Shown: positions 19,812 through 43,225, counted from the stretch's first letter. The stretch is DNA of 64,000 bases from Polaribacter sp. (GCA_047615545.1 JBLHID010000001.1:8586-72585), one strand, 5' to 3'. Numbers and translations are program-made. Notes: a model not told the origin generated them from the letters alone.

Positions 19812-20139
19812 AGTTCTAGACTTAAATTCACCCAGCCTACAAAATACACCCACGCCCACGCTAGCACCCATCCAAATCAGAGACGCAAATACCCGCATAC
19901 TCATAATGGTGTGCCCCAAGTCTTTGTGACAGAATTCATTCGATGTTTCTGGTTTTTTTACATTGTCTAGATGATAATCATTTCACCTCGTCGAGACATC
20001 AATCTTTTAAAATCATTAAGTTATATTAGTTTCATTTCCTATTTGGGAGCCTGAGATTTGAGATGGTTTTTGATGAATCCATTTAATTTGCGTAATTTAT
20101 ATTTTCATAAAAAGGGAAATTGTAAGGGAGATTTTAGTA

Positions 20140-20904: not shown

Positions 20905-21148
20905 ATTGAAACTGTAATCGTAATAGGCACCAAAATTCCTATATAGACATCCTTAAAAAGCGTTAGTTATACAGTGGTTTGCCCACATAAGCCCGTCACC
21001 CATTGCGTTCTACATAGCACAATCCTCAAATAATCAAATAGAGCCTGCAGGATGCATCCGCCAGAAAAATCGGAATAGTACCAATAGCTCAAAAAAGAAG
21101 TCCACTTCAATAGAATTGATTGTTTAATCCTAGCTGCAATGCGTATAT

Positions 21149-21267
21149 TTTTTGAAAAGATCTTCTCTTATGGCTAAATTTTGCTGCATCAAATTCAGAC
21201 CGATGGATTTTGGAATTTCTTTCGTTTGACATTCGGTTAATTTTCGATTACTTTCTTTTTGAAAAGA
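21149..21267. promoter_or_regulatory. two copies of the 12-mer TTTTTGAAAAGA (21149-21160 and 21256-21267) in the glpR-glpD intergenic region
   Basis: An exact 12-nt direct repeat lies 107 bp apart, the second copy ~45 bp upstream of the glpD start. These are candidate operator or promoter elements for the DeoR-type repressor. Confidence 0.3.
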
Positions 21268-21311
21268 ACTGAGCTCATCAGCAATAATTATACTATTTCT
21301 TAGGGGGAGCA

Positions 21312-25005: not shown

Positions 25006-25008
25006 ATC

Positions 25009-25896: not shown

Positions 25897-26768
25897 TTTC
25901 TGACGATAAGGGCTCAACGACGCATCTAGTCGATAGTGCGATGCGAGAAGAAAAGACGATATCCAAGACGCTAAATCTAAAATGGATTACGCCGTCAGTT
26001 TACATTTTCTTTTTGATGCTGCCGATTTATTGGCTTATCAATATGAGTTTTAAAAGCAACCAGGAAATCCTTTCGTCATTTACACTATTTCCTGAAAGCC
26101 CAACATTGGCCAACTATGTTGTGATATTCAGTGATCCGTCTTGGTACAACGGGTATATAAATTCAATGATTTATGTGGCCTTAAATATGGTCATTTCTAT
26201 TTCAGTCGCGCTGCCAGCTGCCTATGCATTTTCAAGGTATCGGTTTCTAGGCGACAAACATATGTTCTTTTGGTTGTTATCTAATCGGATGGCGCCTGCG
26301 GCCGTTTTTGTACTGCCATTCTTTCAGCTTTATTCTTCTTTTGGACTCATTGATACGCATATTGCAGTTGCCCTAGCGCATTGTCTTTTCAATGTTCCAT
26401 TGGCAGTTTGGATTTTGGAGGGATTTATGTCAGGCATTCCCAAAGAGATCGATGAAACTGCCTATATAGATGGTTATTCGTTCCCCAGATTCTTTGTAAA
26501 AGTGTTCATCCCATTGATTGCCTCTGGTATCGGTGTGGCGGCATTTTTCTGTTTCATGTTTTCCTGGGTTGAATTACTGATCGCAAGAACATTGACTACG
26601 GTCGATGCAAAACCGATCGCCGCAATAATGACTAGAACAGTCGGTGCGGCTGGTGTTGATTGGGGTGTGCTTGCCGCGGCGGGTGTTCTCACCATAATTC
26701 CTGGGGCATTGGTTATCTATTTCGTCCGTAATTATATCGCTAAGGGTTTTGCCCTTGGCCGCGTTTAA
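25893..26768 (+). CDS. carbohydrate ABC transporter permease (MalG/UgpE-like)
   Basis: 291-aa polytopic protein with the EAA-like loop DETAYIDGYSFPRFFVKVFIP. Confidence 0.85.
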   Translation: MISDDKGSTTHLVDSAMREEKTISKTLNLKWITPSVYIFFLMLPIYWLINMSFKSNQEILSSFTLFPESPTLANYVVIFSDPSWYNGYINSMIYVALNMVISISVALPAAYAFSRYRFLGDKHMFFWLLSNRMAPAAVFVLPFFQLYSSFGLIDTHIAVALAHCLFNVPLAVWILEGFMSGIPKEIDETAYIDGYSFPRFFVKVFIPLIASGIGVAAFFCFMFSWVELLIARTLTTVDAKPIAAIMTRTVGAAGVDWGVLAAAGVLTIIPGALVIYFVRNYIAKGFALGRV

Positions 26769-26790
26769 ATAACTCATAGGAGCGTCAATA

Positions 26791-27075
26791 ATGGAACTCT
26801 CTTGGATGGCATGGACTGGTCCAACCGCGATTTTCTGGATAGGCATTATTAGTTGCATACTTTCGATGTGTGTATGGGAATATTTTTCACCTGGTGGTAA
26901 CCCACGTGTCGGTATTCTAAGGTTTGAAACTACCAGAGGTGACCGTCTTTTTATATCACTTATCGGTAGTGCTTTTATTCACCTCGCCTGGTTAGGGTTC
27001 ATTGGTGCTGCTGGATTATGGTGGGCTCTAGGCATTTCATTAATTTACGCCATCGGTGTTTTTAAAACAGTGTAA
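26791..27075 (+). CDS. small two-TM membrane protein (DUF2160-like)
   Basis: 94 aa with two hydrophobic helices. It sits between the permeases and the binding protein of the glycerol ABC locus. Confidence 0.5.
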   Translation: MELSWMAWTGPTAIFWIGIISCILSMCVWEYFSPGGNPRVGILRFETTRGDRLFISLIGSAFIHLAWLGFIGAAGLWWALGISLIYAIGVFKTV

Positions 27076-27144
27076 TGGCAAACTTGAGCGCGCTCTTTAC
27101 AAGCTCGCTCTTCATCTCCGCATTAACCCTTAAGGAGGATTAAA

Positions 27145-28866
27145 ATGCGAAAATATGGTCTAAAATCAACGGCAATAGTCGGTCTGATGATAGGAATGAG
27201 TTCTGCACAAGCCGATATGGCTGCTGCAAACAAATTTCTAGCGGATGAAATCGCGGGCGTTTCAGTTTTAAGCGCTCAACAACAAAAAGCAGAAATGAAG
27301 TGGTTTATTGATGCTGCAAAACCCTATACAAACCTGAGAATCAAAGTTGTTTCCGAAACGATTGGTACTCATGAGTATGAGTCCAAAGTGCTTGCGCCAG
27401 CTTTTACAGCCATCACTGGCATAGAAGTTATCCATGATTTGATTGGTGAGGGAGACGTCGTTGAAAAGCTTCAAACCCAGATGCAATCTGGCGAGAATAT
27501 TTACGATGCGTATGTAAATGACTCTGATTTGATTGGAACGCATTGGCGTTACAAGCAAGTCCGTAACCTGACTGACTGGATGGCCGGAGAAGGTAAAGAC
27601 GTTACAAATCCTGACCTAGATCTAGCCGATTTTATTGGAACCTCTTTTACGACTGCCCCAGATGGCAAGCTCTATCAGCTTCCTGATCAGCAGTTCGCAA
27701 ATCTATATTGGTTCCGATACGATTGGTTCAACGACGAAAAGAACAAGGCCGATTTCAAAACAGCCTATGGTTATGATCTCGGCGTACCAGTGAATTGGTC
27801 AGCTTATGAAGATATCGCTGAATTTTTCACTGGACGCGACCTTTCTCGTTTAGGTGTGGATGGTAGTGTCTATGGCAACATGGACTATGGTAAAAAAGAT
27901 CCTTCACTTGGCTGGCGCTACACTGATGCCTGGATGTCTATGGCAGGCATGGGCGATACTGGCGAGCCAAACGGTCTTCCAGTGGATGAGTGGGGCATTC
28001 GTGTCAATGATAAGTCACAACCAACCGGTTCTTGTGTTGCGCGTGGTGGAGCCACCAACTCTCCAGCTGCTGTCTATGCTGTCGAAAAAGCAATTGAGTG
28101 GTTGAAGAAGTATTCTCCACCTGAAGCGGCTGGCATGACATTTGGTGAAGCAGGTCCAATTCCTGCTCAAGGTAATGTTGCGCAGCAAATGTTCTGGTAC
28201 ACCGCGTTTACTGCAGCGACAGTGAAACCTGATCTGCCAGTGATGAACAAAGACGGCACACCAAAATGGCGTATGGCACCATCACCACATGGCGCTTATT
28301 GGAAAGAAGGCACAAAAATTGGTTATCAGGATGCAGGTTCATGGACTCTTATGGAATCTACCCCAGTTGATCGTGCTCAAGCGGCTTGGTTATATGCTCA
28401 GTTCGTGACTTCAAAAACAATCGATCTGAAAAAATCTGATGTTGGTCTCACATTTATTCGTGAATCAACCATCAATTCAGAGCATTTCACAAAACGTGCA
28501 AATAAGCTGGGTGGTTTGATCGAGTTCTATCGTTCACCAGCGCGTGTGCAGTGGTCACCAACGGGTACAAATGTGCCTGATTATCCAAAACTTGCTCAAC
28601 TATGGTGGCAGAACATTGGCGACGCAATGTCTGGTGCTAAAACAGCGCAAGGTGCATTGGATAGTCTATGTGCAGCACAAGAAAAAGTGCTTTCTCGCAT
28701 CCAACGTGCAGGTGTTCAGGGTGATCTTGGTCCTCAATTGAACGAAAAGAAAGACGATAGTTATTGGTTAGCACAAGCCGGCGCTCCAAAGGCAAAACTA
28801 GCCAATGAGAAGCCACAAGGAGTCACTGTCTCATATGATGAGCTTGTGAAAAGTTGGACTCAGTAG
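27145..28866 (+). CDS. ABC transporter periplasmic solute-binding protein (glycerol-binding candidate)
   Basis: 573 aa with a signal peptide (MRKYGLKSTAIVGLMIGMSSAQA) and a family-1 extracellular solute-binding fold. It is the last transporter component before glpK. Confidence 0.8.
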   Translation: MRKYGLKSTAIVGLMIGMSSAQADMAAANKFLADEIAGVSVLSAQQQKAEMKWFIDAAKPYTNLRIKVVSETIGTHEYESKVLAPAFTAITGIEVIHDLIGEGDVVEKLQTQMQSGENIYDAYVNDSDLIGTHWRYKQVRNLTDWMAGEGKDVTNPDLDLADFIGTSFTTAPDGKLYQLPDQQFANLYWFRYDWFNDEKNKADFKTAYGYDLGVPVNWSAYEDIAEFFTGRDLSRLGVDGSVYGNMDYGKKDPSLGWRYTDAWMSMAGMGDTGEPNGLPVDEWGIRVNDKSQPTGSCVARGGATNSPAAVYAVEKAIEWLKKYSPPEAAGMTFGEAGPIPAQGNVAQQMFWYTAFTAATVKPDLPVMNKDGTPKWRMAPSPHGAYWKEGTKIGYQDAGSWTLMESTPVDRAQAAWLYAQFVTSKTIDLKKSDVGLTFIRESTINSEHFTKRANKLGGLIEFYRSPARVQWSPTGTNVPDYPKLAQLWWQNIGDAMSGAKTAQGALDSLCAAQEKVLSRIQRAGVQGDLGPQLNEKKDDSYWLAQAGAPKAKLANEKPQGVTVSYDELVKSWTQ

Positions 28867-28930
28867 TTTGTATCTAAAATATAAAAGCTAGATACCTCCT
28901 CAGCAATCGCTACGGCGTACATGCTATTTA

Positions 28931-28958
28931 GACCTGGGGAAACCCAGGTCTTTTTTTT
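28931..28958 (+). terminator. Rho-independent terminator (GACCTGGGGAAACCCAGGTC + T8)
   Basis: A perfect 8-bp GC-rich stem with a GAAA loop is followed by TTTTTTTT, 65 nt after the binding-protein stop. Confidence 0.8.
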
Positions 28959-28987
28959 GTAACTCATGTGAAAATATGGAGACAGCA

Positions 28988-30502
28988 ATGGCGGACTCTT
29001 TCATCCTTGCAATTGATCAAGGTACTACTTCCTCACGAGCAATCATTTTTGATGAACAGTTTCATATTGTCTCGTCAGCACAACAAGAGTTCACACAACA
29101 TTTCCCTGCGTCGGGAATGGTCGAGCACAATGCTGAAGAGATTTGGCGCAGCGTAATAGCCACTTGTCGAAACGCAATTGCTGATGCAGGTATCCAAACA
29201 TCACAAATTGCAGGTATTGGAATTACGAATCAGCGTGAAACGACAGTCGTATGGGAAAAGGCTACTGGCAAGCCTATTCATCATGCAATTGTATGGCAAG
29301 ACAGGCGGACATCTGATTTCTGCAACGAATTGAAAAATGACGGTCTTGAGGAGATTATTCGTAATAAAACGGGTTTACTTCTCGACCCTTACTTCTCAGC
29401 AACAAAAATACGTTGGATACTAAATCACGTTGAAGGCGCGAGAAAAAAAGCAAATGACGGCGAGCTCCTTTTTGGAACTATCGATACCTATTTATTATGG
29501 CGTCTTACCGATGGTGCCTCACATAAAACAGACGCTACCAATGCGTCTCGAACGCTTCTTTTTGATATAGAAAAGAATGATTGGGACAATGAGCTACTAG
29601 ACATATTTGATGTTCCTCGTCAGATGCTGCCTACCGTGGAAGATTGTGCAGCCGATTTTGGGAGCACAGTAAATGATCTGTTTGGTGCCTCAATTCCAAT
29701 ATTGGGCATCGCCGGCGATCAACATGCGGCAATGCTTGGACAGGCTTGTTTTTATCCTGGAATGATCAAGTCAACCTACGGCACAGGTTGCTTCGTTATG
29801 TTGAACACGGGAGAGGAAAGAGCGTTCTCAAAGAATCGGCTACTGTCCACAGTTGCCTATCGAATAAACGGTAAAACGACCTATGCCTTGGAAGGTTCAA
29901 TCTTCATTGCCGGTGCTGCGGTTCAGTGGCTACGAGACGGACTAAAGATAATTGATGATGCCAGTAAAACTGGAAGTCTCGCCGCTGAAGCTGATAACAG
30001 CCAAGATGTCATTATGGTGCCAGCTTTTACAGGGCTAGGCGCTCCCTATTGGGAGCCTGATGTCAGAGGTGCAATCTTCGGTTTGACACGTAACTCCGGT
30101 CATCGTGAGCTATCCAGGGCCGCCTTAGAGGCCGTTTGTTATCAAACCCGAGACCTGGTCGACGCTATGAAAGATGATTGGCAAGGACAGTTAAACGACA
30201 CCATTCTGAGAGTTGATGGCGGCATGGTCGCCAGTGACTGGACCATGCAATATTTAGCAGACATGCTAGCTGCTCCAATTGACAGACCTTCCATTCTTGA
30301 AACTACAGCGCTAGGAGCGGCATGGCTAGCTGGGATGAAGAGTGGGATTTGGCCTGATATAGAAGGTTTTACGAACTCATGGGAGCTACAAAATCGCTTT
30401 CAACCTCGAATGGAAGAAACCGAGCGTGCACGTCGCTATGCTGGTTGGCGTGCAGCCGTCGCAAGTACAATATCTCAGGCTAAAGCCAGCTCAACGACAT
30501 AG
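28988..30502 (+). CDS. glpK: glycerol kinase
   Basis: FGGY kinase with [15 protein letters not shown] and a GTGCF-type motif. The ATG at 28988 has a GGAG SD; the ORF track starts 12 nt earlier at 28976. Confidence 0.92.
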
Positions 30503-30611
30503 ATAACCGGGCCAAAATCAAGTTCCAAAGTGTTTTTAGGGTAAGAGCCGGATACGAGTGAGTTAGAGTCAACTTAACAATACTTGTAGAGTTTTGATTA
30601 TAGGAAAACTA

Positions 30612-31373
30612 ATGAAAAATGACTTTTTTGATTCAAATCTATTATCGGATAAAACCATTGTAATAACGGGTGCTGGTCGCGGTATTGGCCTCGAAGTAGC
30701 GAATTTAATGGCCCAGTGCGGTGCAAGAATAATAGCCCATAGTGGTCGAACCGGTACCGCAAAAAATCTCTCTGGAATCTCAAGTTCGGTGTTTGAAGCT
30801 GATTTTGCAGATACCAAATCAGTGAAAGAGTTTATCGATTTTGTACAAGCAGAGTCATCAGTAATCGATGTTTTGATTAACAATGCCGGTACCATGCTGG
30901 GTAGGTTTCCCGCAGATGAAATCACCACGGATCAATATCATCAACTCGTTAACCTGAATCAAACTTCTGTAGTACAAATTACAAGCGCATTAATTCCATG
31001 GCTTCGTAAATCCCAGAATGCTGCAATCATAAATACAGTATCAATTTCTGCAACAACCGGTGGAAGTAGTGGCTCTTCAATTTACAGTGCTACCAAAGCC
31101 TTTGTCAGCACTTACACGAAGGCACTAGCACGAGAGCTTGCACCCGATAGTATCAGAGTAAATGCAGTCTCTCCTGGAACGATAAAGACCGATTTTCATA
31201 AGCGCTATTCGAGTAAAGAAAAGTTAGAGACAACGAGACGATCTATCCCTCTGCAGCGCCTTGGTACACCACAGGATTGTTCGCCAGCATACGTGTTCTT
31301 ATCTTCTGAAAAACTATCTGGGTATATCACTGGCCAGATTATAGAGATCAATGGAGGCCAATTGATTATTTAA
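30612..31373 (+). CDS. SDR-family oxidoreductase
   Basis: Has TGAGRGIG cofactor-binding and YSATKAF catalytic motifs. The likely start is the ATG at 30612 (MKNDFFDSNLL), 18 nt inside the ORF-track start. Confidence 0.8.
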   Translation: MKNDFFDSNLLSDKTIVITGAGRGIGLEVANLMAQCGARIIAHSGRTGTAKNLSGISSSVFEADFADTKSVKEFIDFVQAESSVIDVLINNAGTMLGRFPADEITTDQYHQLVNLNQTSVVQITSALIPWLRKSQNAAIINTVSISATTGGSSGSSIYSATKAFVSTYTKALARELAPDSIRVNAVSPGTIKTDFHKRYSSKEKLETTRRSIPLQRLGTPQDCSPAYVFLSSEKLSGYITGQIIEINGGQLII

Positions 31374-31438
31374 CAGCGACTTCTATTTAATCAGCATTAT
31401 TTTTTTTGATATATCAGAAATTTACTTTAGAGAACTGC

Positions 31439-32437
31439 ATGAAAATTAAAGTCGGTATTAATGGTTTTGGACGTATTGGACGCATGGCTTTCCGTGCAAT
31501 TAGAAAAGACTTCCCCAATTTAGAAGTAGTAGGTATTAACGACCTGCTTGATAACGATTATCTTGCTTACATGCTGAATTACGATACAGCACATGGTCGT
31601 TTTGACGGTGATATAGAAGTTGACGGTAATAGCTTTGTGATTGATGGTAAGCGGATAAGTCTATCTGCTGAGCGTAATCCTGAGGAATTAAAGTGGGGTG
31701 AAATTGGTGTTGACGTGGTGCTTGATTGTACTGGTTTTTTCCTAACCGAGATAAGTTGTCAGGCGCATATTAATGCAGGTGCGAAAAAAGTAGTTCAATC
31801 AGCACCGCCTAGGGACAGTACGCCGATGTTTGTTTATGGCGTAAACCACAAAGAATATACGGGCCAAAATATTGTATCTGCAGCTTCGTGTACCACTAAC
31901 TGTCTTGCACCAATCGCTAAGATTGTTCACGACAACTGGGGGCTTAAGCGCGGATTGATGACAACGGTTCACGCGGTGACTGCATCACAAAAAACGGTTG
32001 ATGGCCCATCAGAAAAAGACTGGCGTGGTGGTCGTGCGGTATTTGAAAACATCATTCCTTCTTCGACAGGTGCCGCAAAAGCGGTAGGAATAGTTTTGCC
32101 TGAGCTTGATGGCAAACTGACCGGCATGGCTTTTCGTATTCCTTCGATCGACGTTTCTGTTGTTGACCTAACGTGTGAGCTAAACAAGCCAGCCTCTTAC
32201 GAAGAAATATGTAGCGCTGTTAAAGAAGCTTCTGAAGGTTCAATGAAAGGAACATTGCAATACACTGAAGACAAAGTCGTTTCTTCAGATTTCCGTGGTA
32301 TCAGCGCATCGTCAATCTTTGATGCAGGCGCTGGTATTGCACTAGATGACACTTTTGTGAAGTTGGTTGCTTGGTATGACAATGAATATGGTTATACCTG
32401 CAATATGTTGCGTTTAGCTGAACATGTTGCAGCTTAA
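31439..32437 (+). CDS. gapA: glyceraldehyde-3-phosphate dehydrogenase
   Basis: [16 protein letters not shown]-terminus and the active site [10 protein letters not shown]. The ORF-track start at 31406 is an upstream extension. Confidence 0.92.
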
Positions 32438-32479
32438 GTTCTATAAAGTAGCCTAAAGGCTTAAATAATGGAAAGAACG
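32345..32479 (+). repeat. left copy of a ~135-bp direct repeat (last 31 codons of gapA plus ~40 nt downstream)
   Basis: The sequence gatgacacttttgtgaagttgg...gttgcagcttaa recurs at 40723-40856. The two copies share 90/93 nt in the coding part (3 substitutions, 1 non-synonymous) and ~70% identity after the stop. Confidence 0.85.
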
Positions 32480-32644
32480 GAAGCCATTCAGGCTTATTCG
32501 GTTGGTTGAACATAGGTCAACATCTGTTTCCTGAAAGGCACTACCGAAATTTCGGAAGCGTATTTTTTGAATCGTGGAAAAGAATCATGATATAAACTGC
32601 CAAGCATTATAGAGACATGTTGACTTGTCCGTACTCTGCTCCTA

Positions 32645-34438
32645 TTACCCATGACTGCTGCGCTTCGACAACCAGCTCCCAGAATAAGTCTCATAGTAAC
32701 TCCGTAACCATAGGTCCATCCCCTCTGCAGGTTGTGGATTCGCAAAGTAATAGCCTTGCAGGTTATCGCATCCAAGACCTTTAAGCGTATCAAGTTGCTT
32801 TTCGGTTTCGACACCCTCGGCAACGACCCGCAGGCCAAGATTGTGACCCAGGTCAATAATCGACTTAACGATCAAAAAATTGTTTTTGTGTTCTAGTTTT
32901 TTTACAAAAGACTGGTCAATCTTGACCTCTTTAACGGGGAGTTGATGAAGATAGGTTAACGAGGAATATCCGGTACCAAAATCATCGATCGATAATTCGA
33001 TACCATTTTCATTTAGATTTCGCAGCTGTGCCTCCACTCGAGGAGAATTGCCCATTAGATGATTTTCCGTTACCTCCATTACCAGACCGCCCTGAGGTAT
33101 ATCCCAACTTTGCATTAGATTTACGATCCACTCGGGGTCCAATACATTACTATCGCTAAAGTCATCCGGAGAGACATTGACGGATACCTTGTTTATCACA
33201 CCCTCTCTAATCCAGCTTGAACATTGCTCCATTGCCGTTGCTATAACCCATTGAGTGATCAATGAAACCATATTGTTTTTCTCAGCAAAAGGAATGAAGT
33301 CGATAGGCGATAGCACTCTACTATCCGGGTGGTGCCATCGCACTAGCGCTTCAAGCCCAGGTGCTGATTGATGATTTGAGTCGACTTGAGGTTGATAGTA
33401 AATTTCCAACTGGTTTTCTTTTATCGCCGTAATCAAATCGGCCCGCAAATTTATAGTTAAGTCGTTCTTGGGGTCAATGGATTCGTCATAAACTGTAAAT
33501 GCTCTTCGTGAACGTTTGGCATCATACATTGCGATATCAGCCTTTCGTAACAAATCATCGACCGAGCTACCGTGAAGTGGATATTCCGCAATTCCAAAAC
33601 TACCGCTAACGACTACCTTGTGTTCTTCGTATTCTACTGGTAAATCACAAGCTTCAATTAAATTCTCGATAACCATGGCCGCTTCTACACTGCTGGTTTG
33701 ATTCAAAATTAAACAAAATTCATCACCACCGATACGAGCCAGTGTGTCACTGTTTCTCAAGCGCGCCATCATCCTGTTGGACACTTCCTGTAACACTAGG
33801 TCACCAGCTCGATGTCCCAGCGTATCGTTAATGGCTTTGAAATCATTTAGATCCAAGATCGCTAATACAAAATTGCCCTTGGCACGTTCCGCTAATGCAA
33901 TATAGCGTTTGCCACAATCCAGCAATAGTTTGCGGTTCGCAAGCCCCGTCAATGGATCGTGCAAGGAATCATAGGCATGTTGTTGGTCGGCGTCAGCAAG
34001 CTGAGTGGTGAGCGCCTCCAGCTCAGTATTGCGCCGAGCCAGTAAAATATTTTGTTGCCATAATTTTTTAAAAATCTTCACCTTGCCGATCAAAATCTCT
34101 TCATTTAATGGTTTGCAAATATAATCGACTGCACCGGCCCGATAGCCCTTGATTGAAAAATGTTCTTCTTTATTGATCGCAGTCAGAAAAATAATTGGTA
34201 TATTTGCGGAGCTTTTATTCGATAACATTAAGTCAGCAGTTTCGAAGCCATCCATGTCCGGCATATTTACATCGAGTAGCACCAGGAAGAAGTCATGCTT
34301 CATAACCTGAACCAAAGCACCTTTACCCGAATCCACCTCTATAATTTCAATTTCCAGGGATGCTAGCACTCTGCGTAAGGCATACAGATTATTGGGCTTA
34401 TCATCGACAATCAGTATTTTTGGGAGAGGTTCATTCAT
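32645..34438 (-). CDS. response regulator with REC-GGDEF-EAL domains (c-di-GMP turnover)
   Basis: 597 aa with an N-terminal receiver (ILIVDDKPNNLYAL..DVNMPDMDG), a GGDEF motif (RIGGDEFCLIL) and EAL motifs (EALVRW, DDFGTGYSSL). Confidence 0.88.
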   Translation of the reverse strand: MNEPLPKILIVDDKPNNLYALRRVLASLEIEIIEVDSGKGALVQVMKHDFFLVLLDVNMPDMDGFETADLMLSNKSSANIPIIFLTAINKEEHFSIKGYRAGAVDYICKPLNEEILIGKVKIFKKLWQQNILLARRNTELEALTTQLADADQQHAYDSLHDPLTGLANRKLLLDCGKRYIALAERAKGNFVLAILDLNDFKAINDTLGHRAGDLVLQEVSNRMMARLRNSDTLARIGGDEFCLILNQTSSVEAAMVIENLIEACDLPVEYEEHKVVVSGSFGIAEYPLHGSSVDDLLRKADIAMYDAKRSRRAFTVYDESIDPKNDLTINLRADLITAIKENQLEIYYQPQVDSNHQSAPGLEALVRWHHPDSRVLSPIDFIPFAEKNNMVSLITQWVIATAMEQCSSWIREGVINKVSVNVSPDDFSDSNVLDPEWIVNLMQSWDIPQGGLVMEVTENHLMGNSPRVEAQLRNLNENGIELSIDDFGTGYSSLTYLHQLPVKEVKIDQSFVKKLEHKNNFLIVKSIIDLGHNLGLRVVAEGVETEKQLDTLKGLGCDNLQGYYFANPQPAEGMDLWLRSYYETYSGSWLSKRSSHG

Positions 34439-34701
34439 TTTGTAAATCCATTAGCATTATTAGCAACGTTAATTCTTCCATAGATAAAGGTTCTGTCCAC
34501 CCAAATTGCTTCGATAGCTGCTCGTGGCATCACTTTTGCCTCTGCAACGCAGTCAAATAACACGTTTATAGACGACTGCGAATAGTTGACCCAATCGTTG
34601 AGAGAAAGATTGAATATTTTATCACTTTCGACCCGCAGATATCGACATTGCCGTACTTGCCTAGGATGCTCGCAGCTGCCGAGAAACTGGTGGCGGTCTT
34701 T

Positions 34702-35526
34702 TCATACATGCGCTAACCGCCGATATATTCGTTCTTTGTGCTCAAAGCTTTCGTACTCATGATCAGAATAGGTTAGCGATTCTTGGGTGCCCAAGACTAA
34801 AAAGCCACGGGGCACCAAGCTGTCGGAAAATAACTTCAATGTTCGATTTTGAAGGTTACGACCAAAATAGATCATCACATTGCGACAGATCACTACATTC
34901 ATTTCGGCAAAAACACCATCGCGGATAAGATTGTGATTGGCGAAGGTGATGCGATCGCGTAGCGTTTTCACCATGCGTGCAGAGTCGTAACCTGTTTGAT
35001 AATAATCCGAAAATGAGGATTTACCACCTGATTTCATATAGTTATCAGTATAAGTCTTCATCAGGTTTATCGGGAAAATTGCCTTTTTAGCCGATGACAG
35101 AGCCTTGTTATTGTAGTCCGTCGCATAAATACGGCAACGATCCAGCAGGCCTTCTTCTTGCAACAAGATTGCCATCGAATAAACTTCTGCTCCGGTAGCG
35201 CAACCCGCATGCCAGATATTGATTCGGGAATAGGTACGCAATTTTGGAATAACCGTTTCGCGAATCTTTTTAAAGACCCAAGGGTCACGGAACATTTCCG
35301 TGACCGTGACCGACATGTCGGTCAAAAAGCTTTCAAAAAAAGCTTGATCATGCAAAACCAACGGAATCATTTCAGATACCCGCTCTAATCCAGTAATAGC
35401 CAGACGTTGCGAAACGCGACGATTTAACGAGGCACGCGCATAATCACGAAAATCGTAACCCCAGCGTTTGAAAATAGCCTCCAGAAACAAGTCGACTTCC
35501 AGTTCATTGATATTGGGTTTTTCCAC
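34702..35526 (-). CDS. CheR-type SAM-dependent protein-glutamate methyltransferase (stand-alone)
   Basis: 274 aa with a CheR N-terminal helical domain and a SAM-binding core (IWHAGCATGAEVYSMAILL; NVVICRNVMIYF). No CheA, CheW, CheB or MCP gene is present in the cassette. Confidence 0.8.
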   Translation of the reverse strand: MEKPNINELEVDLFLEAIFKRWGYDFRDYARASLNRRVSQRLAITGLERVSEMIPLVLHDQAFFESFLTDMSVTVTEMFRDPWVFKKIRETVIPKLRTYSRINIWHAGCATGAEVYSMAILLQEEGLLDRCRIYATDYNNKALSSAKKAIFPINLMKTYTDNYMKSGGKSSFSDYYQTGYDSARMVKTLRDRITFANHNLIRDGVFAEMNVVICRNVMIYFGRNLQNRTLKLFSDSLVPRGFLVLGTQESLTYSDHEYESFEHKERIYRRLAHV

Positions 35527-35529
35527 GAT

Positions 35530-38500
35530 CTAGCGGCCAAATTCAGTACGTTCGAACAACCATACGCGCAGCATCGACTTTAATATCTCGACATTGATCG
35601 GCTTGGTTAAATATTCCGACGCACCAGCATCAATACATAAGGCGCGGTCTTCTGGCATTGCTTTGGCAGTCAATGCGATCAACGGCAACTCAGCAAACTG
35701 GCTGATGCCTCGAATTTTCCGCATGGCTTCGTTGCCATCCATAACGGGCATCATGATATCCATCAACACCAATTCTATGCTCGGATTTTCATTTAGTTTA
35801 TCGAGGGCAACTTGACCGTTTTCTGCCATCAAAACATTAAGACCTAGCTGCTGTAGCTCTCTCGACAGGGCATAGACATTGCGCATATCGTCGTCAACTA
35901 AAAGAATCGTTCTGTCTCGGAACAGCATATCATCGTTGTGTAACATTCCGACTTCCTGTTTTTCCTCGCGTTGACCGTTTACCACGCCGCTGTGCAAAAA
36001 CATTGCAACTTCATCAATTAAACGCTCGGGGGACTCGGCACCCTTGACAATAACACTGCCGGTAAACCCTAGGAGACGTACAGTCTCTTCATCGGTCAAC
36101 TCACGTCCGCTATAGATAATAATTGGTGGCAATGCGTTTTTGCTATTTTTGGACACTTTTCTCAGGATATCAAATCCACTCATGTCAGGCAGTTCCAAGT
36201 CCAAGATAACGCAATCAAACTGCTTCGACTTTATATGCCTACAAGCATCTTTGCCATTACTGGCGAATGTGAACTCGATAGTAGAACCGCGAAACAGCGA
36301 AGCGATCGCTTGTTGGTTGCCCTGATCGTCTTCGACCACAAGGATGTGGCGTATATTTTCCAATGATAGACGGTTGATATCGCCAAGGGCCGATTCAATA
36401 TCTTCTCTGGTCACGGGTTTTTGCAGATAGCCGGTGATGCCAGATGCGATTACCTCACCTTTTCGATCAAAACCAGAAATAACATGTATCGGAACACTAG
36501 CGGTCCTAGCCTGGTACTTCAGTTGCTTAATAACCTCTAGGCCGTCGATATCGGGCAATCCCATATCAAGCAATATCCCACATAGTTGGAATTCCGTCGT
36601 TAAATACAACCCGCTGCGGCCATCGGCGGCAGCCAGACATTTGTAGCCACTCGAACGCACCGTGTCCATCAACGTCTGGGCGAAGTCGCTGTCATCTTCA
36701 ATGATCAGTATGGTCTGGTCGCCTTCCTCTATTTGATTTCGGTCATCGCTAATATACTCGGTTGGTCGAAGTTCGACAGCTAAAGCCGTTAGCCCTGGTC
36801 CTGCAAAAGATGTCTGTTGCTGCGCTGCAGGGTTGATTTTTTTTGCTTCACTTCGGTCTTCTTCATTTAAGGGCAAATAAAGACTGAAACAGCTACCTTC
36901 ACCCTCTTTACTCTCTACCAAAATTTCCCCACCTAGTAAATGTGTGAGTTCACGGGATATCGAGAGGCCCAAGCCCGTTCCACCATGTTTGCGACTAGTA
37001 GTACCGTCCACCTGCTGAAAAGCGTCGAATACCAGTTGCTGTTTATCCATTGGAATGCCGATGCCGGTGTCGATTACCGAAAATACCAACAGGTCCTTAT
37101 TTTTCAGTTCGTTTAAACCAGGGTCCATATTAGAGTTATGCGGGGATATTCGTAAAGTTACCTTGCCGGTCTCGGTGAATTTGAACGCGTTCGAGAGAAA
37201 ATTTCTCAATATCTGTTCTAGACGCTGCCCATCCGTATTGATCGATTCGGGTGCTGTGTCGGTAATATCCACCTCGAATTTCAGATTCTTCGAAGTTGCA
37301 ACTGGATTGAACAACCGTTGCAAACCGTCGCTAAAGGGTTCAAGTTCTACCAACTCATCATTAACCATCAACATGCCGGCCTCCACCTTGGACAAGTCCA
37401 TGATGTCATTGATCAGGTTCAGTAAATCCTGACCGCCTTCGTAGATAATTTTGGCATCTTCAATTTGCTCATCCTGTAAGTTGCCGAGGCGGTTGGACAT
37501 CAAACTTTTTGACAGTAATAACATGCTGTTTAACGGGGTGCGAAGTTCGTGTGACATATTGGCCAGGAACTGTGATTTATAGGTGTTGATCACTTTAAGT
37601 TCATGGGCCTGTTCTTCAAGCTCGATCTGAACCTGCTTGAACAATACATTGCTAGCTTCGATTTCTTTTTTCTGCTTTTGCAGCGATTCGGTCTTTTCCT
37701 CCATCTCTTCATTGGAACTTCGCAATTCTTCCTGTTGAGTCTGCAATTCCTCAGATTGAGTCTGGGACTCTTCGAGAAGATTACTAACCCTTTCCTGATT
37801 TTGGCCGGCGCGCACCGCTATTGCGATGGCACCTGACACTAATTCGACAAACTCTATCTGCAAGTCGGTGAATGGCTCGAAGGATCCTATTTCGATTGCA
37901 CCGATGACCCGGTCTTCGAGCCTGAGCGGTACTATCATCAAGTGACGCGGTACTGCTCCACCAAGCCCCGAATTGATCTCGATATAATCATCTGGCAACT
38001 CTGATACCATAATGGTATTGGCGTCTTGAATAGCCTGACCCACCGAGCCTTCTCCGGCCTTAATCGTCCTCAGGGCATGTTTGTGGTGGGAATAGGCGTA
38101 ACTACCTGTCCGGGTGTAGGCATCGTTGTCATTGGCTAAATAAATAACACCGACCGAAGCCCCCACATATTTCGCCAAACCGATGATTATACTGTTACTT
38201 AGCTCATCTAATGCTCGACCCGCACCCATGACATCCGCCATCTCTGCCTGACCATTTTTGGTCCACTGAAAGCGTTCGTTTAGCTCAGCGGAACTCATGA
38301 TGACGTTAAGCACGTTGCGAATCATAAAAAAGGAAAAGATCCCGCCTAAAATAGTACTTAGCACCAATGTAGTGAGAATCAAAAAAAGGTTCTCGTCGAA
38401 CACCTGGTTACCCAGCTCTCGGTTAGTGTCCATCGATAGTTTATTCGCAGTAACCACTTCGCTGATAATTACTTCGGCCTGATCCGCTAATTCTCGGCCT

Positions 38501-40221
38501 TTACCTGAGGCAAGATCGAATGCGAGCTGATTGCCATTTTGCCTCGAGAGCATTCGAACCTTTTCATTGATGGCCAGAAAATTTAACCAGGATTGCTCAA
38601 AGCGGTTCAGAGAGTTCAATTCATTGCCAATGGACAGGAGTTTTAATTGTTTGATCTTTTCTCCCAAGTTAGATTTGAATAACGCTAACGAATCAGAAAA
38701 ACTGTCCATGCCTTCCTGTGTTTTTTCGAGGATCAGACTCTTCTCAGCCCGGTGTATTGCCAACATGTCCTGGATCATGCGCGAAACGATCAACTTTCGT
38801 TCGTTTGCCAGCGCCAGCTGATTTACGCTCTCAATGTTTAGTGCGACATTTCCCTTGACGGTAATATCCAGTTGCAGTTCAGCCTGATCCGCTAATAGGC
38901 GTCCTTCATTTGTGGCTAGATCAAAAGCACGTCGGTTTCCATTTTCCCGAGAAAATTTACGTACCTGGATGTTGTGTGCGCGGTAATTCTTATAAGCTAG
39001 TTTCGATTTTTGGAACGAATTCATATTTTCGCTGTTTGTTTCGAGTGCCGCCTGCAATCGGTCGAAGCGCCTATCGATTTCGATTTCCAGATCCAACATT
39101 ATCTGCATGTATGTGTCTTTGTCAGTCTGGGTTGGCGCCAGAATCAGGTTTTTTTCTGCGCGCTGATACTCCACTACATTGCGCAACAGCCGTGATGTCG
39201 ACTGAATAATCTGGCCGGAGTTCAGCAGTTTGAAAACATCGGTAGAGATATCATCGCTCTGAAAGCGCTCTTCGTGAAATTTACTTATTTTGAATAGCGC
39301 GGTTTCAAGAGTTTCGAAAGATTGTCGCGCATCGCCGATAGACAAGTTGAGTGCGCGAACATTGGAGTTAAGCAGGGTTAATTCTAGCACCTGTTGGTAG
39401 ACATCGCTCCACTGGTTCCATGTTCGGGAAAACTTGTCTAGATCAGAACTACCGTCTGCGGTCGTCAGTTCTCTTAAAGCCCTTCGATTGGAGAACAAAT
39501 CATCTTGTAAGACTTCAATGCGGTTCGCGTACTGACGCATATCCTCGACGTTGGTTGATAGAATAATATTTCTTTCTGCGCGCAGTATTAACAGCATATC
39601 ATTTTGAATCTGGGTGCCGTAAACAATTTTTAGTTGAGCACCAGCCGCCCGTTTCTCGTAACTTTCCGCTGTCTGGTCGGCCACGGCAACAATACCACGC
39701 AGCTCTGTTTCGGCGTTATCGAAGGCGCTGCGCGCCGCCGTTGCAGATAGCTCTCTGGCTTGTACATTTGAGTTCAGTCGTGCATATTCGCGGACCTTGT
39801 TGTCAATAGCCATGTACTCGGATATTTTTTGACGAAACTTGATAATCTTGTCGCTGTTCTTCTTATCTACTAGTGTTTGAATTAAATTCACGCGTTCAAT
39901 TAAATCGAGATGTGTTTGTTGGATAAAGACTGCATATTCATCCATTTCAGCTTGGGTTTGAGCAGTAATAATATTTTTTTCGGCCCGCGTTATCTTCAAT
40001 AAATCTTGCTGAATTTTTTCACCAAGCTGTAATTTATTCGCAGAAATATCCACGATGTCGTTCACATTTTTTTTAAGAGCCTCTAACGCGTTAATACCCA
40101 CGATTCCGACACCCAATATGGCAATAATCAGTAAAGCACTGATTATTGCCAATTTAATACCAATGGCTCGTTGCGATTCAGTCATAATTTTGATCCCTTT
40201 AATATCACCGCTGGTTATCAA
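35530..40221 (-). CDS. giant hybrid sensor histidine kinase: TM, four tandem helical sensor repeats, TM, GAF, coiled coil, HisKA, HATPase, three REC domains
   Basis: 1563 aa. Four ~120-aa periplasmic repeats each carry an R-A-E-(K/R)-(N/S)-(I/L)-IL motif. The H-box is MSHELRTPLNSM and the G-box is GGTGLGLSISRELTHLLGGEI. The three receivers carry ILIIEDD..LDMGLPDIDG, ILVVEDD..LDLELPDMSG and ILLVDDD..MDIMMPVMDG. Confidence 0.85.
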   Translation of the reverse strand: MITSGDIKGIKIMTESQRAIGIKLAIISALLIIAILGVGIVGINALEALKKNVNDIVDISANKLQLGEKIQQDLLKITRAEKNIITAQTQAEMDEYAVFIQQTHLDLIERVNLIQTLVDKKNSDKIIKFRQKISEYMAIDNKVREYARLNSNVQARELSATAARSAFDNAETELRGIVAVADQTAESYEKRAAGAQLKIVYGTQIQNDMLLILRAERNIILSTNVEDMRQYANRIEVLQDDLFSNRRALRELTTADGSSDLDKFSRTWNQWSDVYQQVLELTLLNSNVRALNLSIGDARQSFETLETALFKISKFHEERFQSDDISTDVFKLLNSGQIIQSTSRLLRNVVEYQRAEKNLILAPTQTDKDTYMQIMLDLEIEIDRRFDRLQAALETNSENMNSFQKSKLAYKNYRAHNIQVRKFSRENGNRRAFDLATNEGRLLADQAELQLDITVKGNVALNIESVNQLALANERKLIVSRMIQDMLAIHRAEKSLILEKTQEGMDSFSDSLALFKSNLGEKIKQLKLLSIGNELNSLNRFEQSWLNFLAINEKVRMLSRQNGNQLAFDLASGKGRELADQAEVIISEVVTANKLSMDTNRELGNQVFDENLFLILTTLVLSTILGGIFSFFMIRNVLNVIMSSAELNERFQWTKNGQAEMADVMGAGRALDELSNSIIIGLAKYVGASVGVIYLANDNDAYTRTGSYAYSHHKHALRTIKAGEGSVGQAIQDANTIMVSELPDDYIEINSGLGGAVPRHLMIVPLRLEDRVIGAIEIGSFEPFTDLQIEFVELVSGAIAIAVRAGQNQERVSNLLEESQTQSEELQTQQEELRSSNEEMEEKTESLQKQKKEIEASNVLFKQVQIELEEQAHELKVINTYKSQFLANMSHELRTPLNSMLLLSKSLMSNRLGNLQDEQIEDAKIIYEGGQDLLNLINDIMDLSKVEAGMLMVNDELVELEPFSDGLQRLFNPVATSKNLKFEVDITDTAPESINTDGQRLEQILRNFLSNAFKFTETGKVTLRISPHNSNMDPGLNELKNKDLLVFSVIDTGIGIPMDKQQLVFDAFQQVDGTTSRKHGGTGLGLSISRELTHLLGGEILVESKEGEGSCFSLYLPLNEEDRSEAKKINPAAQQQTSFAGPGLTALAVELRPTEYISDDRNQIEEGDQTILIIEDDSDFAQTLMDTVRSSGYKCLAAADGRSGLYLTTEFQLCGILLDMGLPDIDGLEVIKQLKYQARTASVPIHVISGFDRKGEVIASGITGYLQKPVTREDIESALGDINRLSLENIRHILVVEDDQGNQQAIASLFRGSTIEFTFASNGKDACRHIKSKQFDCVILDLELPDMSGFDILRKVSKNSKNALPPIIIYSGRELTDEETVRLLGFTGSVIVKGAESPERLIDEVAMFLHSGVVNGQREEKQEVGMLHNDDMLFRDRTILLVDDDMRNVYALSRELQQLGLNVLMAENGQVALDKLNENPSIELVLMDIMMPVMDGNEAMRKIRGISQFAELPLIALTAKAMPEDRALCIDAGASEYLTKPINVEILKSMLRVWLFERTEFGR

Positions 40222-40722
40222 CGCTCAGAAAACTTTTCCGATATAAGTTCAAACCCATGTAACTAATGTCCGTAATGACCCAGCCGACAGCGGTATTGCT
40301 AGCATAGTCGAGGACCACAGAGCCCCACTTTGTGTCAATACTTGATAACCTTTTTATTAATATTTTTAGCTTAATTTTAACCACTAGTGTTTGAGGGGAA
40401 GGCAATGGGAAACTCAATAATTCAGCCGAATTCTAAGCTAAATCGGGCTAAAAAGCATGTTCGGTGCCTATTTGTTAAAATATACTGTAAGTAAATATCT
40501 ACGAATCAATCGGACCGACCGGCTTTAATGAAATAGACACAAGCCGCATTATCCAGCATTTGGTATCACTTTAAGACATTGATATCATTCCGGCAAAGTA
40601 CCGTAAAGAACCAATTTGAGTCGCTATTAGGAACGTCTGCCTATTTGACGGGGCCACCAAACAGAATCTGTTTTTTATAAAAAATCTGAAATGTACGGGT
40701 ACTGAATATGCGCAGTATGAAT

Positions 40723-40856
40723 GATGACACTTTTGTGAAGTTGGCTGCTTGGTATGACAATGAATATGGTTATACCTGCAATATGTTGCGCCTAGCTGAA
40801 CATGTTGCAGCTTAAGCTCTATAACGCAGCCCAAGGCCTAAATCATGAGAAGAACA
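40723..40856 (+). repeat. right copy of the ~135-bp direct repeat (orphan gapA 3' fragment of 31 codons plus stop, then diverged flank)
   Basis: It encodes [30 protein letters not shown] with no upstream gapA body. It is nearly identical to 32345-32437 and defines the distal boundary of the 8.4-kb insertion. Confidence 0.85.
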
Positions 40857-41187
40857 AGCACGATGACTGAGGGAAACGTTGGTGTCTCTCGATGCGGCGC
40901 CTATTACCATTGCAGTGCGAGTTGTATTCACGGTGCATGCTTTTACATTTAGCGAGTTATCAAAGGGAGATGTTAAAAATATCCCCTCTGTGCTTTTTGT
41001 TTTAATAAAGGTACATCTTAGAGGTGGTTTGCCTGCCGATGTTATTGAAGTATAAAAAAGGGGCTGTATACCTATAGCACCTTCAGAGAGGGGTCTTATG
41101 ATAGGATGTTTGACTCTTGCTATTCACGGGGAGCACCGATGAGATATGATGCACCCCATAGTAATTAATCCCTTTTGAGAGAAAAAA

Positions 41188-42726
41188 TTGTCTACTTCCA
41201 ATTCTAGGCGTAACCCCACTTTACTGGTGATTATGGACGGCTTCGGCCTGAATCCGTCACCAGAGCATAATGCCGTGTTCGAGGCAAATACCCCCAATCT
41301 GGATCGCTACTTTTCGACTTACCCTACGACAGAGCTAGAAGCGTCGGGACGTGCTATCGGTCTACCTATGGGACAAATGGGTAATTCGGAAGTTGGTCAC
41401 ATGACCATCGGCAGTGGCACGGTAGTAAAACAGGATCTGGTGCGAATCAATGATTCTATAAAAGATAAAAGTTTCTTCCAAAACTCCGCTTTCGTCGGTG
41501 CAATTGAAGCTGCCAAACGTAAAAATCGACCAATCCATTTAATGGGTTTAGTGTCTGATGGTGGTGTGCACAGCCATATCGACCATTTATTGTCGCTGAT
41601 AGATTTGTGTGCGGCACACCAAGTTGTGCCTCAAGTGCATATGATAACGGATGGCCGAGACACCAGCCAGCAAGCTGCGCTTAGCTTTATACCCTTGCTA
41701 GAAGAGCGACTGAGCAATTGCGGTGGGTTTATTGGGAGTGTCAGTGGGCGATTTTATTTGTTAGACCGCGATAGGAGATGGGATCGAGTGCAATTGGGCT
41801 GGGATGCTATTGTTGGTGCCAGTGCTGTTCAGGCCGATTCCGCGAGCGAAGCGGTGGAGCAAAGCTATGCAGCGGGTCAATTTGATGAGTTTATAAAGCC
41901 AACGCTATTGCCTAAGTTTTCACCCATTCAAGCAGGCGATGAACTGATTTTCTTCAATTTTCGAAATGATAGAACTAGAGAAATAACAGCCGCGCTGTCT
42001 AAAAATCATTTTGAGTCGGTGAATAGAGGTGAAAATTTCGTGCCAATCAAAGTCACTTGCATGACTTTATACGACGATGACTTTAATTTACCTATTGCCT
42101 TTCAACCTACCCGACCGAGCGTCACGCTGGGAGGTTTAATTAGTGATGCAGGTCGTCGTCAATTGCATTGTGCAGAGACCGAAAAGTATGCGCATGTTAC
42201 CTTCTTCTTCAATGGTGGACGCGAGGCGTGTTTTGACGGCGAAGAACACAGGCTCATCAAGTCTCCCAGAATCGCCACCTACGATTTAATGCCAGAGATG
42301 AGCGCGGCAGAAGTGACGGAGACAATGATAGCCGCATTGCAATCAAGAGAATTCGATTTTCTAGTGGTTAACTATGCAAACGGCGACATGGTCGGACATA
42401 CCGCAGTGAGAGATGCCGTTATTAAGGCCGTCGAAGTGCTAGATCATGAAGTAGGACGGCTGCTTGATGTCGCTATAGAACTCGGTTATTCAGCATTATT
42501 AACGGCAGACCACGGTAATTGTGATGAAATGGTCGACCCGAAAACTGGTGCGCCTCATACCCAACATACGCAATACCCTGTGCCCTGCATGGTTGCCGAC
42601 AAAGGTGTGGAATCGCTAGCCAGTGCTGGAAACTTGTCCGCAATTGCACCAACCGTATTGCAAATAATGGGAATACCGCAGCCGAAGGCGATGACGGGAA
42701 AGTCATTAATATTGGATGCGTGGTAG
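41188..42726 (+). CDS. gpmI: 2,3-bisphosphoglycerate-independent phosphoglycerate mutase
   Basis: 512 aa with the iPGM metal-site motifs (LLVIMDGFGLN, GNSEVGHM, MITDGRDT) and a TTG start. Confidence 0.9.
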   Translation: MSTSNSRRNPTLLVIMDGFGLNPSPEHNAVFEANTPNLDRYFSTYPTTELEASGRAIGLPMGQMGNSEVGHMTIGSGTVVKQDLVRINDSIKDKSFFQNSAFVGAIEAAKRKNRPIHLMGLVSDGGVHSHIDHLLSLIDLCAAHQVVPQVHMITDGRDTSQQAALSFIPLLEERLSNCGGFIGSVSGRFYLLDRDRRWDRVQLGWDAIVGASAVQADSASEAVEQSYAAGQFDEFIKPTLLPKFSPIQAGDELIFFNFRNDRTREITAALSKNHFESVNRGENFVPIKVTCMTLYDDDFNLPIAFQPTRPSVTLGGLISDAGRRQLHCAETEKYAHVTFFFNGGREACFDGEEHRLIKSPRIATYDLMPEMSAAEVTETMIAALQSREFDFLVVNYANGDMVGHTAVRDAVIKAVEVLDHEVGRLLDVAIELGYSALLTADHGNCDEMVDPKTGAPHTQHTQYPVPCMVADKGVESLASAGNLSAIAPTVLQIMGIPQPKAMTGKSLILDAW

Positions 42727-43010
42727 GTTAGGAAGAGCGGGCCCTGCAGCGAATTAATGAATAATTGGTAAGCCAATTGGTGTCTAATACCAAATCTAAT
42801 GCCTGGTTGCCTGGGAATCTTTATCGGGCAACGCTGGCCAGGAGCCTTTGATAACCAGGAGACAAATCCCAGCACTCTCCACTTGTTGTTAATAGTGACA
42901 AGATATGCCAGTAAGATGATGCTAAAATATCGCAGCTTTTGTTCCTAAGGGCGCCTCTAAAAATAGTGATTTTTTTTGAGTGCCACGAAGCACCGCGCGG
43001 AGAACCTGAG

Positions 43011-43079
43011 TGTACATGAAGTACATGAGGATCGACCGGGCTGGCGCACCAGCACGGAGGTTATGTACAAGATGTACGG
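43011..43079. promoter_or_regulatory. pair of TGTAC-N5-GTACA palindromes (43011-43027 TGTACATGAAGTACATG; 43064-43079 TGTACAAGATGTACGG) upstream of yebC-ruvCAB
   Basis: Two similar 15-bp inverted-repeat motifs lie ~53 bp apart in the 500-bp gpmI-yebC intergenic region. This is a candidate operator pair, not the canonical CTGT-N8-ACAG LexA box. Confidence 0.3.
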
Positions 43080-43225
43080 TATGTCGATTTTGCAGGAGCA
43101 AAAAACCGGTGACGCCGCAATCGCGGAAAAAGTGCATTTTTTAAGATGCCCTTAAAATAAGTTGACTGAGAAGTTGAGAGTAATTTTGAGACAATCCCTA
43201 GAATAGTATGATGAGGTAATTAGTA

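Follow-up and report, generated by a model that had tools for sequence, protein, structure and literature searches.

The DNA analyzed here, a stretch of 64,000 nucleotides (nt) labeled Polaribacter sp. (GCA_047615545.1 JBLHID010000001.1:8586-72585; hereafter the window), carries between gapA and gpmI a signaling cassette of 8,243 nt, a discrete unit bounded exactly by two direct copies of the gapA 3′ end (32345-32479 and 40723-40856). The limits of the repeat are sharp, the exact one-copy allele without the cassette occurs in a co-occurring sister lineage, a second lineage has the same junction between gapA and the cassette, the locus displays local recombination mosaicism, and mobility genes were not seen. 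Footprints of this kind are well known; this instance is new in having the end of gapA as its target, a chemosensory/cyclic di-GMP (c-di-GMP) operon as its sole content, and no integrase. Among the mechanisms considered, we tentatively favor, at somewhat short of even confidence, the joining of the cassette to the gapA 3′ end by the host's own recombination with no dedicated element; a decayed or trans-mobilized element resembling e14 ranks second, and a rearrangement within one genome ranks third.

A repeat finder returned a two-copy direct repeat at 32345-32464 and 40723-40842 (92% identical, spacing 8378), the sole long dispersed repeat of the window, and pairwise and multi-lineage alignments set its full limits at 32345-32479 and 40723-40856. 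The two copies do align, as a preliminary description of this DNA had claimed, and BLASTN of population contigs against the window retrieved the same match (134 nt, 91%, E about 1e-47). The duplicated unit comprises the last 93 nt of gapA, stop codon included, and 42 nt of 3′ flank, or 135 nt in total. Its left edge is sharp at 32345/40723, corresponding to gapA codon 303 of 332, and its right edge falls after ...GAAGAAC at 32479/40856. Past this edge, the proximal copy runs into sequence common only to the lineage represented by contig L181, and the distal copy runs into AAGCACGAT..., which is common to L177 and L178. The proximal copy, on the plus strand, consists of codons 303-332 of the functional gene, its stop, and the 42-nt flank. 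The distal copy, also on the plus strand, retains 30 codons and a stop in frame, followed by a 41-nt flank; given in-frame stops 11 and 14 codons upstream, it is an orphan gapA tail, in agreement with the preliminary description. A 35-aa ORF spans 40708-40815 at the orphan tail.

The coding parts differ at 3 of 93 nt (96.8% identity, matching the 97% first reported). One mismatch, GTT/GCT (Val/Ala) at 32367/40745, is nonsynonymous with the distal, orphan state derived, and the other two, CGT/CGC at 32413/40791 and TTA/CTA at 32414/40792, are synonymous. The post-stop parts (42 versus 41 nt) differ by eight substitutions and one indel; they are indeed less alike than the coding parts, although their 79% identity lies somewhat above the approximately 70% initially given. 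The difference between coding part and flank is significant (3/93 versus 9/42, Fisher p = 0.0014), and synonymous divergence (dS) between the two tails is 0.12, compared with 0.41-0.43 for gapA between lineages. These values do not fit one duplication event with subsequent neutral decay of the orphan tail, the tails being far more alike than such decay since the lineages split would allow. They require either a pair of alleles, each selected as a working gene end before being joined (a mimic borne by an element, or a donor allele), or gene conversion templated by the live copy.

These numbers bear on a rearrangement confined to one genome, in which replication template switching or an unequal exchange brought the operon from another chromosomal position and duplicated 135 nt of target without any transfer, with flank divergence and conversion of the coding part following later. 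The native composition of the cassette and the lack of mobility genes accord with such an event, as do the distances among the tails: the proximal and distal tails differ from that of L177 at 8/93 and 7/93 nt, respectively, and from each other at only 3/93, as a duplication within one genome predicts (distances to L181 are 10-11 of 93). However, under one duplication date the divergence of coding part and flank is approximately 4-fold discordant (p = 0.0014), so that extra assumptions are needed, the junction is common to a strongly diverged lineage, and neither microhomology nor a second breakpoint signature was identified. We regard this origin as unlikely.

The empty site that the preliminary description had predicted, with gapA followed directly by gpmI and a single copy of the repeat, was found in L177 and L178, both from one study, where the order is tatC-orf113-gapA-gpmI-yebC-ruvC-ruvA and the cassette is absent. 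Their gapA product shares 93% amino acid (aa) identity with that of the window, the one gapA tail of each matches both copies in the window, and gapA and gpmI are separated by a spacer of 192 nt. L178 and L180 share samples with the window-type contigs L090 and L088, respectively; JGI 3300054698 and 3300053785 are among the samples in which both lineages occur. L177 and L178 align to the window over 18583-19941, then over a decayed SDR remnant plus gapA (31097-32474), and then from 41052 onward. The SDR remnant upstream of gapA (1335-1601 in L177 and 3694-3960 in L178) is frameshifted and internally deleted, from which it follows that this lineage once had the glycerol cluster and then deleted it (window 19942-31096 is missing). 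An empty site with one repeat copy is what the claim of an insertion called for, yet it is compatible both with gain of the cassette and with its repeat-mediated loss, the junction being common to L181 at a dS of ~0.43.

Loss is a serious possibility, although one that we stop short of calling probable, and it can be combined with either mechanism of joining: the cassette and both repeats would be ancestral to the clade of the window, L181, and L177, the empty site of L177/L178 would be a RecA-type deletion, and gene conversion would keep the repeats alike. The L177 lineage demonstrably loses DNA here, as evidenced by the missing glp cluster and the frameshifted SDR remnant. The gapA genes of the window, L177, and L181 are about equidistant (89-90% nt identity, dS 0.41-0.43), and their informative sites join L177 to the cassette-bearing L181 (20 sites) over the window to L181 (6 sites); the overall count of 20 versus 6-8 weakly favors deletion, but recombination mosaicism undermines the gapA tree. 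The junction is as old as dS ~0.43 and the tails are only 2-3/93 nt apart, which requires conversion or recent renewal. Moreover, one homologous site, the third base of an Arg codon, varies within the population in both copies: the proximal base at 32413 is T or C (C in 4/10 contigs), and the distal base at 40791 is C or G (G in 3/4 assemblies). Against a deletion, a cassette-bearing genome of the L177 lineage is not known, and the single copy in L177 is not visibly a chimera of proximal left and distal right parts.

The second lineage with the junction, L181 (sample 3300060725; gapA 90% aa identity), is colinear with the window over 24763-33073 and displays the same succession of gapA, 42 nt, and cassette. 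The L181 contig ends within the REC-GGDEF-EAL gene (RGE), short of the distal junction. Window and L181 are 96-99% identical over the glp genes and 81-91% identical from ~31250 (gapA, flank, and RGE). This switch, located immediately before gapA, marks a homologous-recombination breakpoint, or possibly an assembly chimera in L181. Within gapA itself, identity between lineages is again a mosaic, and the two observations together show homologous recombination at work at the locus, as the favored explanation supposes. A kinase cluster member, P0242, was considered as a candidate for the distal junction of the L181 lineage and turned out to belong to the window population itself.

In that explanation, where the sequence of steps, the donor, and also the enzyme are inferred, DNA from a related lineage that already had the operon 42 nt downstream of gapA would have paired with the resident glp-gapA region via homology on the gapA side, and its other end would have joined illegitimately in the resident gapA at codon 303. 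Such an event could be homology-facilitated illegitimate recombination, or a circularized fragment could have entered by an equivalent single crossover. The incoming gapA end would complete the working gene, and the resident end, together with the gpmI spacer, would be left as a nonfunctional relic 8.2 kb farther downstream. Each copy would then be an allele of a functional gene end, which would account for coding parts that are near-identical and untranslated flanks that differ, and gene conversion from the live copy may later have added to the coding likeness. Once in place, the 135-nt repeats would permit RecA-type loss or allelic replacement of the cassette, and such events would explain the exact one-copy empty allele in the co-occurring sister lineage. 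The junctions are of the two kinds that this course of events involves: one lies in homology to the resident gene, and the other (40723) is a novel join to unrelated sequence.

That the orphan tail is a chimera assembled from co-occurring strains is very improbable. The window represents a metagenomic population, of which 11 further contigs at 99.8-99.99% identity display the same arrangement, and three of these cross the distal junction. A related empty-site lineage is present in the same samples and several contigs break soon after gapA, as a chimera might lead one to expect; however, these contigs break only after entering cassette-specific sequence. The left junction of the orphan, from non-gapA sequence to codon 303, is reproduced in four independent assemblies (window, L081, L082, and L184) with no base difference there, and the orphan tail differs from an L177-type tail at 7 of 93 sites.

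Site-specific integration, the mechanism put forward in the preliminary description, would leave much the same footprint. In E. coli K-12, the element e14 is bracketed by the end of icd and the icdC fragment (PMC13626634). As at icd, the insertion here lies at the 3′ end of a central-metabolism gene with a direct repeat of the gene end on both sides; alignment of icd with icdC reveals the same abrupt coding edge, ~92% coding identity there with mostly silent changes, and a weaker short post-stop flank. The displaced copy is an in-frame orphan in both systems, and an exact one-copy state exists for both (e14-free strains; L177/L178 here). Since icd/icdC exhibits the same anatomy, the footprint is fully compatible with site-specific integration. 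In contrast to e14, which has intE, xisE, phage genes, and SOS-induced excision (PMC13626634), the segment here is without any recombinase or phage gene, and its insert is a single signaling operon with core-like composition that occurs elsewhere as a plain chromosomal operon.

The statement that no integrase is present was borne out: neither integrase, excisionase, phage, nor conjugation genes were found in the segment or the 64 kb, and Pfam detected no recombinase or transposase domain in any open reading frame (ORF) of at least 110 aa in the window, the rest of which is housekeeping (dprA, def, fmt, rsmB, trkAH, his, tat, ruvCAB, tol-pal, and others). Stop-to-stop frames over 40150-40760 (Pfam, E ≤ 1) gave no gene or recombinase remnant in the 501-nt stretch by the distal repeat. 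Terminal inverted repeats were not found at the cassette ends. Insertion of a transposon or insertion sequence does not fit either, there being no transposase, no inverted repeats at the ends, and a duplication of 135 nt rather than 2-14 bp. Among 80 genomes with a gapA product at 68-83% aa identity, none has a second gapA tail within 10 kb, and gapA as an attachment site is undescribed in the literature searched. Searches of viral contigs and plasmids with the cassette returned distant domain-level matches at most and no relatives.

An element of the e14/icd type would have an attP carrying a 135-nt mimic of the gapA end, with the original end displaced and the integrase either deleted or, as for a cargo-only island resembling the cis-mobilizable elements (CIMEs) described below, acting in trans. 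Besides the e14-like anatomy (abrupt left edge, ~92% coding identity, weaker post-stop flank), several observations point to such an element: the unit whose presence varies is delimited exactly by direct repeats, L181 has the same junction with a cassette that is 13-16% diverged, as if related elements used one attachment (att) site, the cassette occurs in three genomic contexts across three lineages, and a cheB remnant indicates deletional decay within it. Weighed against these are the missing integrase, excisionase, phage, and conjugation genes, the lack of a pseudogene trace in the 501 nt by the distal repeat, the core-like composition of the cassette, the ordinary chromosomal contexts of the operon elsewhere without repeats, gapA tails, or integrases, the 0/80 related genomes with a gapA-tail duplication, and the missing viral or plasmid relatives and literature precedent. 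Taken together, the anatomy kept the proposal of site-specific integration in contention without establishing it as the mechanism, and we consider an element of this type possible but doubtful.

Cargo-only elements without an integrase are known from streptococcal integrative and conjugative elements (ICEs), whose CIMEs lie at housekeeping-gene 3′ ends between direct repeats that are att sites. The CIME repeats are demonstrable att sites of an ICE integrase found in related strains. The segment between gapA and gpmI likewise consists of cargo only, between direct repeats at a housekeeping gene 3′ end and with no recombinase of its own; unlike for CIMEs, no cognate integrase or related element is known for it. 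It is rather unlikely that the segment is a cargo-only, integrase-less mobilizable island with the gapA 3′ end as its att site, whose mobilization in trans would depend on a recombinase gene elsewhere in these genomes of marine gammaproteobacteria and would shuttle the complete operon between co-occurring lineages.

A precedent for an integrase-free origin is provided by homology-facilitated illegitimate recombination and by the "C-terminal displacement" at Rhs and type VI secretion system (T6SS) effector-immunity loci, in which the former 3′ end is left lying downstream of the conserved gene (PMC5361080). Such loci share with the gapA locus the lack of an integrase, one end anchored by homology in a conserved gene, another end formed by an illegitimate join, and an orphaned old 3′ end (PMC5361080); homologous-recombination mosaicism at the locus is a further likeness. 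The difference is that the incoming 3′ end at Rhs/T6SS loci is a different toxin tip, so that orphans differ from the active end, whereas both ends are the same sequence here. In addition, the extra DNA at gapA is an unrelated, oppositely oriented operon, and a donor arrangement free of the orphan was not observed.

Several points weigh against host recombination as the origin of the junction. A donor with gapA, 42 nt, and cassette minus the orphan tail was not seen, and the distal junction of the L181 lineage was sought and not recovered. Literature quoted in PMC5361080 describes homology-facilitated illegitimate recombination as rare. An element-borne mimic of a gene end, as in e14/icd, would equally present this repeat anatomy. 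The variable sites of the repeat do not split cleanly into one L177-like and one L181-like copy; an attempt to assign the copies to donor and recipient alleles by these sites gave an interleaved, uninformative pattern with no such sorting. From the flank distance, about 6 synonymous differences would be expected between two orthologous tails and only 2 are seen (a rough estimate, Poisson P about 0.06). Finally, only 64 kb of the genome is in view, and a recombinase encoded elsewhere is possible.

The cassette is best read as an ordinary chromosomal chemosensory-type c-di-GMP signaling operon of hybrid kinase, CheR, CheB, and REC-GGDEF-EAL. All of its genes are on the minus strand. Pfam upheld the REC-GGDEF-EAL, CheR, and hybrid kinase assignments of the preliminary description, which had missed the remnant of cheB. 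RGE, a REC-GGDEF-EAL response regulator (32645-34438), is the last gene of the operon. It is followed by a cassette-side flank (32480-32644) extending from the proximal repeat to its stop codon, which only L181 shares (88%). Three independent assemblies stop at 32540-32562, beside a 12-nt palindrome, CCGAAATTTCGG (32545-32556). The 263-nt gap between CheR and RGE (34439-34701) is a decayed cheB methylesterase gene, recognized by BLASTN/TBLASTN remnants, that keeps residues ~80-111 and ~153-172 and has lost the N-terminal 79 residues and an internal 41. CheB is intact (184-186 aa) in every orthologous cassette (L171-L176), and this population has therefore lost half of the methylation arm of its pathway. 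The CheR methyltransferase gene occupies 34702-35526, and the 1563-aa hybrid histidine kinase gene occupies 35530-40221 (Pfam: tandem 4HB_MCP-like modules, GAF, HisKA, HATPase_c, and three REC). The kinase has four tandem four-helix-bundle-like modules of ~135 aa each with a RAEKN(I/L)IL-type motif, visible as DNA repeats at 39140/39560/39965. The kinase gene always adjoins CheR/CheB, and no separate methyl-accepting chemotaxis protein (MCP) or CheW is encoded, on which grounds the kinase may be methylation-tuned. Upstream of it, a noncoding stretch of 501 nt (40222-40722) extends to the distal repeat.

Concerning cargo rather than footprint, the operon resembles Wsp-type c-di-GMP chemosensory pathways in encoding CheR and CheB with a hybrid histidine kinase and a REC-GGDEF output. 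Unlike Wsp, it has neither a separate MCP nor CheW, the four-helix-bundle sensor modules being fused to the kinase, and its output also has an EAL domain; cheB is a pseudogene in the window. Kinase orthologues share 64-78% aa identity, and the REC-GGDEF-EAL orthologues in L171-L176 share 75-77%. In L171-L173, the operon (kinase-CheR-CheB-REC/GGDEF/EAL) lies between gltA and rpsO, and in L174-L176 the orthologous operon lies between genes for a tripartite ATP-independent periplasmic (TRAP) transporter and EamA. No gapA fragment lies alongside these six operons and no integrase domain was found within 10 kb of them; L171, L174, and L176 were free of flanking direct repeats, containing internal domain repeats only. 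Nucleotide similarity between the window and its orthologues is limited to the genes, from about 40232-40319 down to 32668-32693, and beyond ~98 nt upstream of the kinase start no homologue of 40222-40722 was retrieved from any fetched locus. A comparison of cassette and flank composition, proposed earlier as a check on insertion, gave no foreign signal: the tetranucleotide distance of the cassette is 0.0110 (null 0.0100 +/- 0.0013) and its G+C content at third codon positions (GC3) is 0.44-0.50, both core-like. The foreign composition of an integrase-mediated island is therefore not observed, the cassette lying within the core null.

The locus provides a natural example of a large insertion at the end of a housekeeping gene without breakage, in which the gene end is doubled and one copy is functional. 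It also calls for caution, in that a duplicated gene end is usually taken to prove an integrase-driven island, yet no mobility gene is visible here; duplicated gene ends alone are no ground for annotating integrative elements. The discovery of a trans-acting recombinase would make gapA a new attachment site. The repeat-bounded signaling operon varies between lineages that co-occur and may therefore reflect an ecological difference, such as one in surface attachment or in motility control.

To the left of the cassette, on the plus strand, gapA (31439-32437; Pfam Gp_dh_N/Gp_dh_C) encodes a functional protein of 332 aa, the last 30 codons and stop of which constitute the coding part of the proximal repeat; this exact protein is present on 14 contigs. 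It is preceded on the same strand by a glycerol-utilization block (19942-31438; Pfam) of glpR (DeoR), glpD, an ATP-binding cassette (ABC) transporter, glpK, and SDR, with the transporter, within 19942-31438, comprising two ATPases, two permeases, DUF2160, and a binding protein (Pfam). The block from glpR through glpK-SDR-gapA (19942-32479) displays a GC3 of 0.31-0.40 and atypical tetranucleotide usage, and it is this glycerol-gapA block, not the signaling cassette, that is compositionally foreign. The nearest gpmI relatives in an older metagenome collection, L091 (85% aa) and L092 (82% aa), have the order hisBHAFIE-tatABC-small ORF-gpmI with neither gapA nor cassette between. The window counterparts of the genes up to the small ORF end at 19811 and gpmI starts at 41188; homology to L091/L092, judged by eye, ends near 19905 and resumes near 41138. 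Hence ~21 kb is accessory here (glpR, glpD, glycerol-type ABC transporter, glpK, SDR, gapA, cassette, and orphan tail), and gapA is part of a 12.5-kb glycerol block missing at this locus in L091/L092. A search for terminal direct or inverted repeats of this larger accessory block (19.9-41.1 kb) gave nothing above chance. The supposition that glpK-SDR-gapA-gpmI would be contiguous without the cassette fared poorly: that arrangement was seen in no genome, and the glpR...gapA block is itself accessory, atypical in composition, absent in L091/L092, and largely deleted in L177. A LysR gene adjoins the glp-SDR-gapA block in L182/L183, where the block lies elsewhere. L185 has gapA at 89% aa identity (P0126) in a canonical tkt-gapA-pgk-pyk-fba cluster and is uninformative for this locus, and gapA relatives from a scan of genome contigs reach at most 83% aa identity with no synteny.

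To the right of the orphan tail, the rest of the original gapA-gpmI spacer (40857-41187; alignments) precedes gpmI (41188-42726, plus strand; Pfam), which encodes a cofactor-independent phosphoglycerate mutase and is the conserved right-hand neighbor, with gpmI-yebC synteny kept in distant relatives. Parts of the spacer are colinear with L177 (40857-40864 and 41052-41187), and the window has 40865-41051 in addition. The spacer also contains, at 41123-41150, a promoter-like site for gpmI whose -10 region is conserved in L091/L092. The conservation of the orphan tail would be explained if it contained the gpmI promoter, but this idea was rejected on finding that the site at 41123-41150, the only promoter-like one, is in sequence shared by relatives without gapA. 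The extra 187-nt segment (40865-41051) separates the orphan tail from the gpmI upstream region, is missing from L177/L178, and has no homologue in any fetched locus; a 57-aa ORF was called within it at 40882-41055 and has no Pfam match. Between gpmI and yebC lies a 210-nt element (42951-43160), absent in L177, of which partial inverted-orientation copies occur in the unrelated loci L093, L096 (twice), and L080, and which looks like a miniature mobile repeat. The 187-nt segment is not a copy of this element downstream of gpmI, which resembles a miniature inverted-repeat transposable element (MITE), and the segment has no copy in the fetched loci.

Proteins identical to those of the window (P0001, P0244, P0246, P0247, and P0249) are named "MAG: ... 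[Polaribacter sp.]" at NCBI. The gene content of the window (tol-pal, his-tat, and ruvCAB) and all relatives are gammaproteobacterial, and the L181-type SDR is labeled Candidatus Azotimanducaceae; the Polaribacter contig is probably mis-binned or mislabeled. An Rfam scan of the whole window identified tRNA-Lys only. Farther to the right, a gene for a TonB_2-domain (TolA-like) protein contains a 15-nt tandem repeat array (47833-47952), which is ordinary low-complexity coding sequence.

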